Source: a virus. Taken from it: 14,793 nt of DNA. The stretch lies in the UHGV virus genome UHGV-0120184; one strand, 5' to 3'. Shown piece by piece: positions 4,840-12,733 of this stretch. The translations under genes and the position numbers were made by a program. How positions within the stretch are numbered: position 1 is the stretch's first letter; every line of letters starts with the position of its first letter. Below the pieces are notes generated by a model. It was given only the letters and a program-made list of their open reading frames with translations, was not told the DNA's origin and searched no databases.

Positions 4840-6032
4840 TAGCTACCTCCAAGAGATGCAAAAGCAGAGCCAAAGAACTCGTCGGTAAACGTCTGATAGA
4901 GTTCCATACACTCCATCGGCGGAACAGGCGTGTATTTGTAGCGAATACGCACAATGCCCTGACGAAGACTGGTTGTGCCGTTGTCGATGATATCGAACCA
5001 GCACTCAGCCCCGATGAGTTTTCCGGCTGTCACCAGTGCATCCAGCTTTGCCTTGATAGCGCTCACGGCATCCTTAGCATTGGCAGGCGTAAGCGGTGAA
5101 TCCACTATCTGAAGTTGCGCCTCCGCAATGGTGTCAGCCAGTTGCTGCGCCGTACGTGTGTACACCTCAAAGATGTACTCCGCAGTTTCCGGCGTACGGT
5201 TACCCCAGAAACGGAAGGAGCCGTCGCCCTGGTGAATAAGAGTGGTCACCTCGCTATTGTTCAGCGTGTTGGCATCGCTGTTTTCATCCTGAAGTGACCA
5301 GGAAACAGACGCTGACACCCCAAGAACATTTTTCACAGGCATGTTAGAAAGGGAGCGATGCCAGCCCTGTTCATGGTCGAGTCGGGCACGAAGACCGCAC
5401 GCATACGCCGCAGCCGGGAAGGTTTCGTTTTTACCGGACACCGGGTTGAACGCAATGAAATCAGGCCACAGAAGCATGATTTCGCGACCGGAAATCTTTT
5501 TACGGAACGCAATAGCATCGGACGGTTTTGTGCAGCCAGGGCAGCCGGAATACGCAAATGCGCGCATTTTTCCGGCAACAGTCACCAGTGCAGCCGTGAC
5601 AGCATCCGATTCAAGGCCCGGAGCGGCAAGAATGCGGGGTCGGTAACCAATACCTTCCATCTGTTCGGCAACCAGAAGCGCCTGCATACCGCTGTAGCTT
5701 CCGTCTTCTTCCGTGGTACCAATGACCAGTTGATCCTGTGTTTTATTCTCAGCCCCCTCTTTTGCCGCCTCCACGCGAACGACAATCACCCGTGTACTGA
5801 CCTGGTCAGATATCGCTTTAAGGGCCTTATAAAGCGTGCCCGCTTTCCCGGCCTTCCCCAGAACAGAAGATACACGGGTAATCAGCACAGGCTTGTTAAG
5901 GGGGAACTGCCCGGTATCCGCATCATCTGCAACGGCAACAATACCAATGACGCTGGAATCAACGTCATTAATGGCCGTCACAAGGTCGGTATTCTCCGTG
6001 ACGCGCACACCGTGAAATCGTTTTTCAGCCAT
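4839..6032 (-). CDS. FI: Contractile tail sheath protein gpFI (397 aa from MAEKRFHGVRVTE)
   Basis: Strong resemblance to P2 FI: HGV.V.E near the N-terminus, FPLNKPVLIT, GW H.SLSN, TTLI...G.FRFWGNRT, YTRTAQ, and Y.YTPVPP near the C-terminus. I prefer the internal ATG 6032 over 6044, based on GGTGA upstream and alignment to the P2 N-terminus. Confidence 0.92.
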   Translation of the reverse strand: MAEKRFHGVRVTENTDLVTAINDVDSSVIGIVAVADDADTGQFPLNKPVLITRVSSVLGKAGKAGTLYKALKAISDQVSTRVIVVRVEAAKEGAENKTQDQLVIGTTEEDGSYSGMQALLVAEQMEGIGYRPRILAAPGLESDAVTAALVTVAGKMRAFAYSGCPGCTKPSDAIAFRKKISGREIMLLWPDFIAFNPVSGKNETFPAAAYACGLRARLDHEQGWHRSLSNMPVKNVLGVSASVSWSLQDENSDANTLNNSEVTTLIHQGDGSFRFWGNRTPETAEYIFEVYTRTAQQLADTIAEAQLQIVDSPLTPANAKDAVSAIKAKLDALVTAGKLIGAECWFDIIDNGTTSLRQGIVRIRYKYTPVPPMECMELYQTFTDEFFGSAFASLGGS

Positions 6033-6084
6033 ACGATTCACCATCAGTTGTGTTTATGCTCGCCTGAATAATCCACCATTGGCG

Positions 6085-6125
6085 CACAGCCCTCACCTGA
6101 TGCGGGCTGTGGGGATTTTTTTACA
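6085..6125. promoter_or_regulatory. Divergent late-promoter region: a TGT-N12-ACA dyad (6108-6125) overlapping a GC-rich hairpin plus T7 run
   Basis: TGT(6108-6110)-ggggattttttt-ACA(6123-6125) matches the dyad reported for Ogr-dependent P2 late promoters. It sits between the divergent FI (start 6032) and D (start 6186) genes. The same DNA forms the stem CACAGCCC (6085-6092) / GGGCTGTG (6104-6111), followed by ggga and TTTTTTT (6116-6122). Confidence 0.4.
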
Positions 6126-6185
6126 ACAGAGCCGGACAGAAACGACAAGGTACGCGTGGGATGATACGCACACGGGAGGGATATC

Positions 6186-7331
6186 ATGAGCATCACTGAA
6201 TCAGTAACACATCACATCAACAGCGCACTGGATGCAGCGGAAGATACCGTTAGGGTGCCAGACTTCACTATCACACTGGAAGGGAAAGATGCCAGCCTGA
6301 AGAACATCACGCAGCGCATCATGAGCCTGACCATGACAGACAACAGGGGTTTTGAGGCTGACAGGGTGACACTGGAAATCGACGACGCCGACGGCGGGGT
6401 GGTACTTCCGGAGCGCGGAACACGATTATCGCTGGCGATGGGATGGAAAGGTGAAAGCCTCACTCGCAAGGGGGCGTTTGTGGTGGACGAAGTGAGCCAC
6501 GAAGGTCCGCCGGATAAGCTGACCATATCCGCGAACAGTGCGGATTTTCGCGAAGAGTTTAACGTGAAACGCGAAGTCTCCTGGCATGACGTGACCGTTG
6601 AGCGTGTGGTATCTGCCATCGCGCACCGTTACGGACTGAAAGCACAAATCAGCGAAATGCTGATGAATATCGAAATCGACCATGCAGACCAGACAGAGGA
6701 AAGCGACATCTCGTTCCTCACGCGTATGGCTGACATGCTGGGTGCAATAACCACCGTAAAAAACGGGTGCCTGCTGTTCATTCTGCCGGGTGGCGGTGTG
6801 ACAGCCAGCGGGCGCGCCCTCCCCTCATTCGCCCTGACCCGCTCGGATGGCGACAGTCATCGCTTTCGCATTGCTGACAGAAAAGCCTATACCGGAGTGA
6901 AAGCTTACTGGCTGGATTTAAAGTTCGGCCAGAAGAAGGCCGTGAACGTGAAAAAGCGAAACGCGAAAACCACACAGAAGCCGGAGAAAAGCAGTTCACG
7001 GGAGGGTGGATACATGGAAGGCGCAGAAGGCAATGTGTATGTGCTGAGAAAAACCTACCCGAACGAAGAAGCCGCGCGTCGCGCAGCTGCCGCACGCTGG
7101 CAGCAACTTCAGCGGGGTGCAGCAGAATTCAGCATCACGCTGGCGCGCGGACGCGCCGACCTGTATCCGGAGATGCACGGCACGGTATCCGGGTTCAAGA
7201 GCGACATTGACAATCAGGACTGGATTATTTCGCGCATTGAGCACGTCATCGACGACAGCGGCTTCACCACCAGACTGGAGCTGGAAGCAAAAATCGCAGA
7301 CTGGATAGCAGAGCGCGCCACGACTGGCTAG
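6186..7331 (+). CDS. D: Phage late control/tail protein gpD
   Basis: A 381-aa ORF with GGGAGGG upstream. It contains the P2 gpD motifs LTMTDNRGFEAD, GWKG, F.VDEV.H.G.PD...I.A.SADF, SWHD, VTASG, ITRSDGD.H.F.IADR.AYTGV.A.W, QRG.AEFSI.LA.GRAD.Y and SGFK..ID.QDW.I..V.H...SGFTT.LELE. Confidence 0.93.
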   Translation: MSITESVTHHINSALDAAEDTVRVPDFTITLEGKDASLKNITQRIMSLTMTDNRGFEADRVTLEIDDADGGVVLPERGTRLSLAMGWKGESLTRKGAFVVDEVSHEGPPDKLTISANSADFREEFNVKREVSWHDVTVERVVSAIAHRYGLKAQISEMLMNIEIDHADQTEESDISFLTRMADMLGAITTVKNGCLLFILPGGGVTASGRALPSFALTRSDGDSHRFRIADRKAYTGVKAYWLDLKFGQKKAVNVKKRNAKTTQKPEKSSSREGGYMEGAEGNVYVLRKTYPNEEAARRAAAARWQQLQRGAAEFSITLARGRADLYPEMHGTVSGFKSDIDNQDWIISRIEHVIDDSGFTTRLELEAKIADWIAERATTG

Positions 7332-7372
7332 AATGAGCGCGAGCCCACCCCGTTTCAGCCAGGGGGACCATC

Positions 7373-7675
7373 ATGCATCCTTGCCCATACTGCGGAGCAA
7401 GTACCCGCACCAGAACAAGCCGCGACGCCAACGATACAGGAACAATCAGGGAGAAATATTACCAGTGCAACAACATTGAATGCAGCGCCACCTTTGTGAC
7501 GCACGAGTTTGTCGTGAGAACCGTATGCCGTCCGCAACCCACCGAAGAACGGGGAGTCGTCCCCGCAGACGCTTTCAAATCATGCCACCGGGGAAGGGAT
7601 CAACTCAGCCTCCCCCTGGGCGATTGCGCCTCCCAGTCAAAAACTGTACATTACGCGCGGGTGCCTTTCGGCTGA
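7373..7675 (+). CDS. ogr: Ogr/Delta-type zinc-finger late transcription activator, with a C-terminal extension relative to the ~72-aa P2 Ogr
   Basis: MHPCPYCG...(22 residues)...CNNIECSATF reproduces the CxxC-N22-CxxxxC Ogr finger (P2: CPLCQ...CQNVNCSATF). GGGGGA lies upstream of the ATG. The gene follows gpD directly, as in P2. Confidence 0.88.
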   Translation: MHPCPYCGASTRTRTSRDANDTGTIREKYYQCNNIECSATFVTHEFVVRTVCRPQPTEERGVVPADAFKSCHRGRDQLSLPLGDCASQSKTVHYARVPFG

Positions 7676-7805
7676 CGGCTGGAAGGATTACCTGAAGGCC
7701 GGATGTGGAAAGGCCCCGGAAAACATCTCTGTTTAGCCGAGGCCCTAATCTACATATCTTTAGCAAGTAGAAGGTTAGCGCCTCTTTGAAAAAGGAGCAA
7801 GCGCT

Positions 7806-7946
7806 ATGCCGCAAAAAACGATCATCGTGAGCATTTTATGCTTAACCATGTTGTTGACCGTCTGGATGATACATCGTTCACCATGTGAATTCAGACTTAA
7901 CATCATGTGGTCAGAATTTGCGGCGTTCTTGCAGTGTAAACCGTAA
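7806..7946 (+). CDS. Hok/Gef/PndA-family type I toxin-like small membrane peptide (46 aa), below the ORF-track length threshold
   Basis: The translation is MPQKTIIVSILCLTMLLTVWMIHRSPCEFRLNIMWSEFAAFLQCKP. AGGAG lies 8 nt upstream. It has an N-terminal TM helix followed by S.CE.R and ..AAF. Compare PndA (MPQRT...VWMVRDSLCGLRL) and Hok ([21 protein letters not shown]), both recalled from memory. Confidence 0.7.
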   Translation: MPQKTIIVSILCLTMLLTVWMIHRSPCEFRLNIMWSEFAAFLQCKP

Positions 7947-8041
7947 GAAACCGCAGCGGGGGTGAAAGCCCCCGCTATCCGGTTGCCGAAGGTTCGGTCG
8001 AAAGCCGCACCCGTGCATGCAAGTGACAAAGAAAAAACAAA

Positions 8042-8071
8042 GCCCGCAGCGTAAAAACTGCGGGCTTTTTT
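8042..8071 (+). terminator. Rho-independent terminator closing the hok-like transcription unit
   Basis: Stem GCCCGCAG (8042-8049) / CTGCGGGC (8058-8065) with an 8-nt loop, followed by TTTTTT (8066-8071). The A-rich run upstream (8031-8041) could let it work on the minus strand too. Confidence 0.75.
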
Positions 8072-8112
8072 ATTCACATACCGAAGGTGTGGTAACTGCC
8101 TGGGTTCAGACC

Positions 8113-8136
8113 AAAAAAAGCCCCATAAAATGGGGC
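8113..8136 (-). terminator. Rho-independent terminator on the minus strand
   Basis: Stem GCCCCA (8120-8125) / TGGGGC (8131-8136) with a 5-nt loop. On the minus strand it is followed by TTTTTTT (complement of the A-run 8113-8119). It lies about 300 nt downstream of the minus-strand AT-rich operon. Confidence 0.55.
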
Positions 8137-8432
8137 TGAAGATTCTGTAAGGAATTTCACAGCAATGAGATTCTAGTCTCTTCCAATGATATATGAGTCT
8201 TCAGCCTGAATCAATGGGGCATGACTGTGAATCCACCGACGATCAAAACTTGCACAATGCCTGAAGTTGAGTTAGAAAAGTACCGGGCGCGATATCCGGT
8301 TTATTTTTTGTTGCTGTGTTTTGCCTCGTGCCGGATATCGCGTCCACCGTTTTTCTGATGATTCTTATGAAATCGTACTTTATTGATTTACTGCCATCCT
8401 GGTTTGTCTTTTTATGTTCATTATTGCGACAG

Positions 8433-9694: not shown

Positions 9695-9939
9695 TGTCGC
9701 TTCGGCGACCACCAATGTTCCATAGTGGCCTGTGAGGAACGCCTTCGGGTGGCCCATGTCGCTCCGGCGACCACCAATGCTCCATATGACCTGTGAGGAG
9801 CGCCTTCGGGTGGTCAGTTTTACACCTCCGTAGCCTGAAAGGAGCTGTGAGTACTGAAGGGAAACATCCCTGATGTATGGGCAAATCTGCACACCTTTGA
9901 GAGCAGATGTCACTACGGTTTTACGTGATGATGAAGGCA
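9695..9939. repeat. Direct repeat copy A (245 nt) containing tandem units 9696-9757 (62 nt) and 9758-9817 (60 nt)
   Basis: It aligns base-for-base with 12489-12733 and differs by 3 T/C transitions (9702, 9878, 9914). The shared motif taac lies just upstream of both copies. Confidence 0.95.
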
Positions 9940-10163: not shown

Positions 10164-10682
10164 GGCCATCTGCCCTGAAGGCAGCATCACGTAAGGTCTG
10201 GCAGAAAATCGTCGCTCGTGACAAGCGTCCTGATGCTCGTTTTGTCGCTCTGACAACGTCTTTCGGTGACGTATCCACGCCTTTCCGGCGCGTCCGTTTT
10301 CACACGGACGGCCACGCCGGAATGTCTTCTTAAACTTCGTAATACATGAGAGGTAAGTGTATTAACTGACTGAAATAAAGGAATAAAAATGAAAAATCGT
10401 TCTGATGTCGGGAGGCGTCATCGTAAGGTGACGGGGAGTATTCCTCAACAATCGCCCTGGTGCACAGGTAGCGAACTCCTGTAAGAACTCAACATGTGCA
10501 AGCTCTGCTACATCGACATCAAACGAGCCAGGAAGGCGAACAACCGCGTTACAGAGCCGTCCGTGATGACGAAAAACTAACAATATCAACGAACTTTTCT
10601 GTTTACCGGAAGGGCTGCGTATGCAGTTTTACTTTGTGAACGGAAGGGGGCTGCATCTGATTTTTACAGGGAGAATGACTTT

Positions 10683-12488: not shown

Positions 12489-12733
12489 TGTCGCTCCGGC
12501 GACCACCAATGTTCCATAGTGGCCTGTGAGGAACGCCTTCGGGTGGCCCATGTCGCTCCGGCGACCACCAATGCTCCATATGACCTGTGAGGAGCGCCTT
12601 CGGGTGGTCAGTTTTACACCTCCGTAGCCTGAAAGGAGCTGTGAGTACTGAAGGGAAACATCCCTGATGTACGGGCAAATCTGCACACCTTTGAGAGCAG
12701 ATGTCACCACGGTTTTACGTGATGATGAAGGCA
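12489..12733. repeat. Direct repeat copy B (245 nt) containing tandem units 12490-12551 and 12552-12611
   Basis: Same orientation as copy A, with 242 of 245 positions identical by manual alignment. Confidence 0.95.
12489..12733 (+). ncRNA. Candidate structured ncRNA or leader, copy B
   Basis: Same structure as copy A. There is a sigma70-like TTGAAG (12446-12451), an 18-nt spacer, then TATATT (12470-12475). This predicts a start within a few nt of the repeat's 5' boundary. No terminator follows this copy. Confidence 0.4.

Follow-up and report, generated by a model that had tools for sequence, protein, structure and literature searches.

A probable hok/sok-type cassette of a HokA-like lineage with no conserved mok frame

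The UHGV virus genome UHGV-0120184, a stretch of 14,793 nt that we call the window and number from its first nucleotide, very probably carries at 7622–8075 an intact hok/sok-type type I toxin–antitoxin cassette of a HokA-like lineage with 46-residue toxins, working by the mechanism that we propose below. By sequence and comparison, the cassette comprises a Hok-family gene, a closed, structured mRNA, and a conserved antisense promoter followed by a hairpin RNA; the mechanism is drawn from this anatomy and from the paradigms of plasmid R1 and of hokW. The locus bears the RNA hallmarks of hok/sok systems but falls short formally on two counts: it scores below the Rfam gathering threshold, and it lacks mok. 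The toxin gene is common in E. coli prophages, routinely annotated in RefSeq, and already known. Only in the missing conserved mok does the locus really depart from the model set by plasmid R1, and the absence of mok throughout the lineage seems to be the only potentially new angle, apparently unanalysed before.

The toxin gene occupies 7806–7946 on the plus strand (ATG at 7806, TAA at 7944–7946) and encodes a HokA-like peptide of 46 amino acids with cysteines at positions 12, 27, and 44 (MPQKTIIVSILCLTMLLTVWMIHRSPCEFRLNIMWSEFAAFLQCKP). As stated in the original prediction, which was made from the sequence of the window alone, this open reading frame (ORF) has a good Shine–Dalgarno (SD) sequence, AAGGAG at 7792–7797, 8 nt 5′ of the ATG, and it combines an N-terminal transmembrane (TM) helix with the S.CE.R…AAF signature. 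We located the TM segment at residues 5–19, where the Kyte–Doolittle hydropathy reaches its maximum of 2.57, and the signature at S25-x-C27-E28-x-R30 … A39-A40-F41. The assignment to the Hok family also withstood a profile search: Pfam HOK_GEF (PF01848) matches with 27.8 bits at a gathering score of 22, aligning residues 9–44 of the ORF to positions 7–42 of the 42-position profile, and PHROG 251 (‘MokW-like host killing’) matches with 69 bits (E 4.6e-19). The peptide is identical to RefSeq entry WP_001135720.1, named ‘Hok/Gef family protein’ by PGAP and found in prophage and integrative and conjugative element (ICE) contexts. Searching with the protein returned E. coli entries only, each of them named Hok/Gef; the exact protein is present in 5815 blocks of the contig index, and 1750 of 5426 complete E. 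coli genomes contain a homologue of the region. Taken with the Rfam match and the fold described below, these results lie far above what chance would give. The length of 46 residues is retained in 25 of 27 distinct cassettes, at identities down to ~48%. Judged on its sequence, the ORF is a genuine and intact Hok-family membrane toxin gene.

Within the family, the closest named relative is HokA of E. coli K-12 (hokA/mokA/sokA), the best NCBIfam match, with 45% identity to the window peptide over its whole length. Both proteins share an MPQK N-terminus, a (T)WMI motif, S-x-CE, and an AAFL-x-CK C-terminus with the second cysteine, the window peptide being shorter (46 versus 50 amino acids). Its score of 37.9 bits lies far under the cut-off of 89 of the HokA equivalog model (NF007290), and we therefore class the peptide as HokA-like and not as a HokA orthologue. 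Since it is HokA-like, the FLQCKP C-terminus, initially regarded as deviant, turns out to be a normal HokA-type ending with a second cysteine; K-12 HokA ends in …AAFLACKLKE. A recent survey of Hok peptides lists M1, C16, T18, L30, C31, E32, and E41 of its logo as conserved in >80% of sequences, finds a cysteine at the C-terminal logo position 48 in 34% of peptides, and describes the disulfide between the two cysteines of Hok as functionally important (10.1101/2025.08.07.668861). The window peptide keeps the corresponding residues M1, C12, T14, C27, E28, and E37; the position of L30 is taken by P26, where relatives of the same lineage have leucine.

The gene is part of a discrete mobile module of ~455 bp on the plus strand (7622–8075), whose boundaries are given by homology: similarity to the ICE copy begins at 7622, similarity to the prophage copy extends to 8074–8076, and distant copies (71–86% DNA identity) align across 7647–8074. 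The unit is thus larger than the one starting at 7700 that had been proposed, with a promoter at ~7622 and an mRNA 5′ end at 7659. It also does not lie ‘just beyond’ ogr, since the ogr ORF of 100 codons (7373–7675) extends, at its 3′ end, over the hok promoter and 17 nt into the mRNA. We placed the hok and the Sok promoters by conservation and by homology to the hokW locus of phage 933W. The predicted hok promoter (7624–7652, plus strand) consists of a −35 element TTGCGC at 7624–7629, a 17-nt spacer, and a −10 element TACATT at 7647–7652; ATTGC and TA.A.T are kept in 17 copies, and the spacing from the −10 element to the leader equals that of hokW in 933W.

The predicted full-length hok mRNA comprises 416 nt (7659–8074, plus strand), as delimited by the start of the Rfam alignment, the fold, and conserved pairing. 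Rfam ‘sok’ (RF01794), which in effect models the hok leader strand, aligns in permissive mode over its full length to 7659–7816 (E 4.7e-9, 45.9 bits), and its position 1 falls on GGGTGCC at 7659, a motif that recurs in 6 other loci. That the locus encodes a long, structured mRNA of hok type, as originally suggested for its 3′ region, agrees with a minimum free energy of −175.2 kcal/mol and a fold z-score of −9.8 for the 416-nt transcript. We mapped the minimum free energy structure of the window onto an alignment of 17 homologous sequences and used slid partners as controls. Standard pairs fill 79.1% of pair cells, compared to 37–47% with slid partners; 25 pairs show compensatory double changes, and the covariation amounts to 0.149 versus 0.05–0.07 in the slid controls.

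The structure is closed from end to end. A tac-like 5′ element (7659–7675) pairs with an fbi-like element at 7994–8012 (…CGGUCGAAAGCCGCACCC) that is complementary to the mRNA 5′ end, and in 17/17 homologues nucleotide 1 pairs with a …GCACCC element 351–357 nt further 3′, even as partner sequences vary. This helix 1 is paired to 80% and shows no double-sided changes because its 5′ arm is invariant. It is followed by a leader hairpin at 7676–7701 (arms 7676–7680/7697–7701 and 7684–7686/7691–7693), whose helices 2 and 3 are paired to 98% with one compensatory pair each (UA/CG and GC/AU). A further hairpin at 7777–7805 is predicted to sequester the SD: AGCGC (7777–7781) and GCGCU (7801–7805) close the pairing of CUCUUU (7782–7787) with AAGGAG (7792–7797), with a local ΔG of −11.2 kcal/mol (helix 8, 98.8% paired, and also helix 9). 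The start region of hok (7806–7815, ucb-like) pairs with a dcb-like downstream box at 7917–7926 in the 10-bp helix 10, for which 97.6% of cells are paired in the 17 homologues; here the support comes from conservation and not from covariation, the pairs being mostly invariant. In the 3′ untranslated region, the GC-rich 8-bp hairpin at 7955–7976 that was reported at the outset (AGCGGGGG at 7955–7962, CCCCCGCT at 7969–7976) is helix 16, 97.4% paired and with compensatory double changes in 4 pairs. The strong terminator reported alongside it is likewise present on the plus strand, its stem spanning 8039–8068 and its T-run extending to 8074, and its helices 20–21 include compensatory pairs. The 5′–3′ fold-back and the ucb/dcb pairing, which belong to the R1 paradigm, are thus both predicted for the window mRNA, and the layout as a whole is the architecture described for hok mRNAs (PMC4147584, PMC9841398).

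The original prediction had been unable to pin down a Sok promoter; comparison with sokW of 933W, together with conservation, allowed us to locate one. The predicted promoter runs on the minus strand from 7800 to 7772, with the −35 element TTGCTC at 7800–7795, overlapping the hok SD, a 17-nt spacer, and the −10 element TAACCT at 7777–7772. Within this region, AGGTTAGCGCCTC is invariant across 17 copies, and the minus-strand sequence CGCTAACCT around the −10 element is invariant in 15 homologues. The sokW promoter of 933W has the same −10 element TAACCT, again separated by 17 nt from the preceding TTGCCT, and its annotated RNA begins 7 nt further on. Taking sokW as the model, we set the 5′ end of the window Sok at 7765/7764 and its 3′ end near 7708, which gives a predicted RNA of ~58 nt (7765–7708, minus strand) with a 19-nt single-stranded 5′ tail, a hairpin (arms 7744–7737/7719–7712) of −21.5 kcal/mol, and a terminal UUUC. 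The outer stem is invariant and contains U:G in 14/15 sequences and G:U in 7/15. Read on the mRNA strand, both pairs would become A·C mismatches, so that selection for the hairpin seems to act on the antisense strand; folding of the Sok strand with RNAalifold yields no covariation, with an invariant outer stem and an inner part that carries indels. A cis-encoded candidate Sok gene, composed of a promoter in the hok initiation region and an RNA with tail and hairpin, is therefore part of the predicted cassette.

The leader under the Sok tail and loop (~7725–7769) is hypervariable, with column entropies of 0.5–0.8 bits, and its flanks at 7650–7724 and 7770–7814 are nearly invariant (0.15–0.37). 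This variability would agree with co-resident hok/sok cassettes diversifying in the specificity of their antitoxins. The window itself differs from all 13 ICE copies by two private substitutions, both in the Sok gene: T7757 belongs to the 5′ recognition tail of the RNA, and A7769 is situated between the −10 element and the start of Sok. The T7757/A7769 allele was found neither in viral contigs nor in complete E. coli genomes.

The relation to mok distinguishes the window from the characterised systems. In R1, the mok AUG lies 58 nt 5′ of the hok AUG, and mok has to be translated at least to the hok SD (PMC9841398). In 933W, an annotated 70-aa mokW starts in frame 57 nt upstream of hokW, with its ATG under the Sok 5′ end. 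No start codon stands at the equivalent position of the window (CCCUAAUC), and an invariant TAG at 7776–7778, itself part of the Sok −10 element, closes frame 0; in K-12, the annotated mokA is an in-frame upstream extension truncated by IS150. The two other frames contain no ATG, GTG, or TTG in most homologues. What does exist is an upstream ORF (uORF) of 28 codons in the frame equivalent to R1 mok (7703–7789, plus strand), whose TGA at 7787–7789 lies over the anti-SD, and this frame is not conserved: starting from the conserved ATG 7703, it measures 1–78 codons across the 27 distinct cassettes, is ended at once by a stop codon in 5, and extends to the SD in just 5. Seven cassettes with identical Hok have frames of 1, 1, 6, 15, 19, 28, and 28 codons. 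We see in these data no selection for a mok-like frame in the lineage, so that the earlier failure to find an overlapping mok-like frame was correct and applies to the lineage as a whole. We found no description of the mok status of this lineage in the literature; mok, Sok, and the mRNA were deliberately outside the analysis of the Hok survey (10.1101/2025.08.07.668861).

We modelled the accessibility of the hok SD by partition-function calculations. Unmasking by 3′ truncation or by Sok occupancy was rejected as a candidate, as neither changed the accessibility in these models: upon in-silico 3′ truncation, the 5′ end re-pairs locally in most homologues and the SD stays closed. An alternative fold, in which GAGGC (7739–7743) pairs with GCCUC (7780–7784) as in the Rfam consensus, would free the SD at a cost of ~3 kcal/mol, and binding of Sok would abolish this fold.

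From these elements we propose the following course of events. A weak constitutive promoter at 7624–7652 would produce a stable 416-nt mRNA (7659–8074) that is inert by virtue of a 5′ end clamped to the fbi-like element, an SD held in a local hairpin, and a start codon paired to the downstream box. The unstable ~58-nt Sok, transcribed from the minus-strand promoter that overlaps the SD, would pair with the leader at least 27 nt 5′ of the SD, silence the hok mRNA, and mark it for decay by RNase III. Once Sok synthesis stops, by loss of the element or upon prophage induction as for hokW, Sok would decay and the 3′-trimmed hok mRNA would be translated. The peptide would then enter the inner membrane via its N-terminal helix, with a periplasmic Cys27–Cys44 pair, and the membrane potential would collapse. 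As the Sok footprint ends 27 nt before the SD and mok is absent, repression should proceed by structure, by standby competition, or by decay, that is, independently of leader-peptide coupling: Sok would remove the SD-freeing fold, remove a ribosome standby region, or act mainly through mRNA decay. The role of the cassette may be to stabilise the element that carries it or to assist lysis on prophage induction, as hokW does in Sp5. This scheme follows R1 (PMC4147584, PMC9841398) and the hokW–sokW system of Sp5, in which HokW is toxic, neutralised by sokW, and activated on prophage induction (PMC8621323).

As mobile cargo, the cassette is carried by P2-like and lambdoid prophages, by plasmids, and by conjugative elements. 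In many P2-like prophages, phage P88 among them, it is situated 3′ of ogr at the right end, and in lambdoid prophages after lom or between J and the tail-fibre gene; further copies reside on an IncI plasmid, on an ICE downstream of an L31 paralogue, and on the O157 urease/tellurite island. One and the same prophage, recognised by an identical Ogr, carries it beside serS, pgsA-uvrC, and tamB/ytfP. The suggestion that the locus marks the edge of an element proved right in a stronger sense than intended, as the junction between prophage and ICE runs through the cassette itself. The sequence at 5500–8075 is 98.7% identical to a P2-like prophage, and 7900–9900 matches the ICE of E. coli S19-651 at 100% identity. 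Before 7708 the window shows no differences to the prophage copy, and after 7645 it differs from the ICE copy at 7757 and 7769 only. Mapping of single-nucleotide polymorphisms (SNPs) thereby confines the crossover between prophage-type left and ICE-type right sequence to a shared 62-bp stretch at 7646–7707. By this mapping, the window cassette is a hybrid that combines the promoter of a P2-like prophage with an ICE-type body.

A number of observations weigh against the reading of the locus as a working hok/sok cassette. The only NCBIfam matches are the HokA model and the Hok subfamily model NF007279, and both scores are under the cut-off (27.3 bits against 73 for the latter). The proposed Rfam check gave a divided answer, with a match in permissive mode and a negative result at gathering thresholds, where hok/sok is not found in the window (45.9 against 59 bits). 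A scan for the sigma-70 consensus returned 0 sites on both strands, both promoters being under its threshold. Translation of mok is mandatory for Hok synthesis in R1 (PMC9841398), and mok is absent here. The models assign the SD a probability of being unpaired of ~0.01 in the nascent, full-length, and 3′-trimmed forms alike, with or without Sok, and SD-closed models of this kind leave the activation step unexplained. The hybrid promoter and the SNPs at 7757 and 7769 in the Sok region may affect how this cassette works. Toxicity of the window peptide is predicted by proxy, and the chromosomal hok loci of K-12 have been reported to be inactive for post-segregational killing (cited in 10.1101/2025.08.07.668861).

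Taken together, the missing mok, the closed SD in all forms, the sub-threshold RNA and NCBIfam scores, the hybrid promoter, and the K-12 precedent could mean that the locus is an evolutionary relic, hok-like yet dead in its regulation or non-toxic, as proposed for the hok loci of K-12, and the original prediction had itself considered a decayed member. We regard this as very unlikely. Thousands of assemblies contain the identical, intact ORF, every RNA element is conserved, the conserved length and the compensatory RNA changes imply ongoing selection, and the cassette is retained on active mobile elements such as phage P88. The Rfam shortfall is a property of the lineage, as 5 other members score 37.5–50.5 bits against 113.5 for the 933W hokW leader; because the whole 46-aa lineage scores alike, it reflects divergence rather than decay. 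As for toxicity, the homologue 82_1289 is identical to the O157-island copy and 80% identical to the window peptide. In the survey, 82_1289 and the cluster-72 peptides are among the 45 homologues tested, and the three non-toxic ones are others (10.1101/2025.08.07.668861), so that the tested representatives of clusters 82 and 72 stand outside the non-toxic set.

Accepting an intact cassette, one may still ask whether the 28-codon uORF from ATG 7703 to TGA 7787–7789 is the functional mok equivalent of this particular allele. Coupling would then be canonical and of R1 type, ribosomes melting the anti-SD at 7782–7787 and passing to the hok SD unless Sok, bound to 7708–7765, blocked them. The uORF does occupy the frame equivalent to R1 mok (R1 AUG at −58), its stop falls exactly over the anti-SD and 16 nt before the hok ATG, most of it lies under the Sok footprint, ATG 7703 and the upstream GAAGG are invariant in the lineage, and R1 mok needs to be translated only as far as the hok SD. 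Against this stand the erratic lengths of the frame, even among the seven cassettes with identical Hok, and the position of ATG 7703 inside a conserved RNA helix, by which its conservation is explained without coding; we consider a functional uORF unlikely. The hybrid nature of the cassette invites a different objection, namely that it is an assembly chimera created by collapse of two ~450-bp hok repeats in one genome. Its junction occurs in none of the complete E. coli genomes searched, several strains contain both the prophage and the ICE copy, and the crossover lies inside a 62-bp stretch identical in both. Homologous recombination between such repeats is, however, equally expected; in strains G1/2 and UCPROB-002 the copies are inverted, so that exchange gives a viable inversion, and cassettes are visibly shuffled and stacked in nature. 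A chimera is accordingly a possibility to which we give some weight, though clearly not the favoured one, and it would touch the context only and leave the identity of the hok locus unaffected. The hybrid is most simply read as the product of homologous exchange between two co-resident cassettes.

The window shares with R1 hok/mok/sok (parB) a long structured leader, the 5′–3′ fold-back, pairing of the start region with the downstream box, a Sok promoter over the hok initiation region, the succession of fbi and terminator, and a small TM toxin that keeps the conserved residues C, T, CE, and E. It differs in the toxin sequence (~35% identity to R1 Hok), in a leader of 147 nt to the hok AUG versus 173 nt, in a C-terminus that ends in …CK versus …AYE, and in having no mok where R1 depends on mok translation. 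The R1 Hok sequence used here was validated by a 98% phage match and by the published 44% identity to HokW. The hokW–mokW–sokW locus of 933W/Sp5 is prophage-borne like the window cassette and experimentally characterised (PMC8621323). In addition to the Sok promoter geometry, both have a leader that starts with GGGTGC, a …GCACCC fbi-like element, and a toxin of the same PHROG family; HokW has 51 amino acids and is only 26% identical to the window peptide, and hokW occupies another position in its phage. We rejected Sp5 HokW as a member of this lineage; it is a different, canonical paralogue.

Escalera-Maurer et al. (bioRxiv 10.1101/2025.08.07.668861) already list the lineage itself, as their clusters 82 and 72, in a survey that also covers prophage enrichment and tandem ‘islets’. 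Cluster-72 peptides are of the P88/P2-like type, and the accessible portion of its supplementary text does not contain the exact window peptide. The tisB/istR-1 system, in which the antitoxin pairs well 5′ of a sequestered toxin SD and the initiation region is not overlapped (PMC4147584), offers a possible functional analogy for a mok-less hok, with a putative standby site in the window. Sequence and family are unrelated, and IstR-1 is divergently encoded and not antisense-overlapping.

Several features around the cassette bear on its mobility. Pfam Ogr_Delta covers only residues 4–51 of Ogr. Because the last ~18 codons of ogr are encoded by the hok cassette and, in other P2-like prophages such as L006, ogr ends ahead of it, the C-terminal tail of Ogr looks like a by-product of cassette insertion. 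In L029–L038, prophages with identical Ogr, D, and hok cassette are integrated at three chromosomal sites (serS, pgsA-uvrC, and tamB/ytfP), and at all three the junction from prophage to host falls directly after the hok terminator, at ~8074–8076; the phage att core may for this reason overlap or abut the terminator. Next to serS, arrays of two or three complete hok/sok cassettes stand in tandem between the prophage end and serS (L019/L028 5358–6268, L026 4644–6271, and L021 4897–6272). Every unit comes with a promoter, a 46-aa ORF, an fbi-like element, and a terminator of its own, and the spacers measure ~35 nt, or ~300 nt with a small reverse ORF. The arrays match the ‘islets’ of the Hok survey (10.1101/2025.08.07.668861). 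An att site within the cassette was rejected as their source, as the internal units are complete and have their own terminators; for the junction in the window, such a site stays a candidate.

Downstream of the cassette and directed towards the hok terminator lies a second terminator-like hairpin on the minus strand (8119–8137), made up of AGCCCCATTTTATGGGGCT and a subsequent T-run. It is conserved in sequence in the ICE and O157-island copies and presumably ends a minus-strand ICE gene. Two STAXI RNA motifs (9695–9868 and 12489–12662) and one EFASI RNA motif (10397–10525), all on the plus strand and above their Rfam gathering scores, agree with the right half of the window being ICE sequence, and the O157-island copy (L003) shows the same order of hok, STAXI, and EFASI.

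At the level of the family, the Rfam gathering threshold misses the RNA components of this entire lineage. For the elements that carry the cassette, the near-invariant hok leader, common to cassettes that have diverged elsewhere, constitutes a portable patch of homology between prophages, ICEs, and plasmids, and an exchange of the kind apparently captured here could drive inversions or fusions of elements. We tentatively raise the possibility, to which we attach less than even weight, that the 46-residue HokA-like lineage (clusters 82 and 72) forms a branch of hok that naturally lacks mok, in which Sok exerts control without leader-peptide coupling. The routes could be sequestration of the GAGGC anti-anti-SD, standby competition as for IstR-1, or RNase III decay alone. 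If this is true, a step held mandatory in the 30-year-old R1 paradigm would be dispensable in a large natural clade, and a mok-less lineage with every RNA hallmark of hok/sok would provide a natural test of whether leader-peptide coupling is obligatory.

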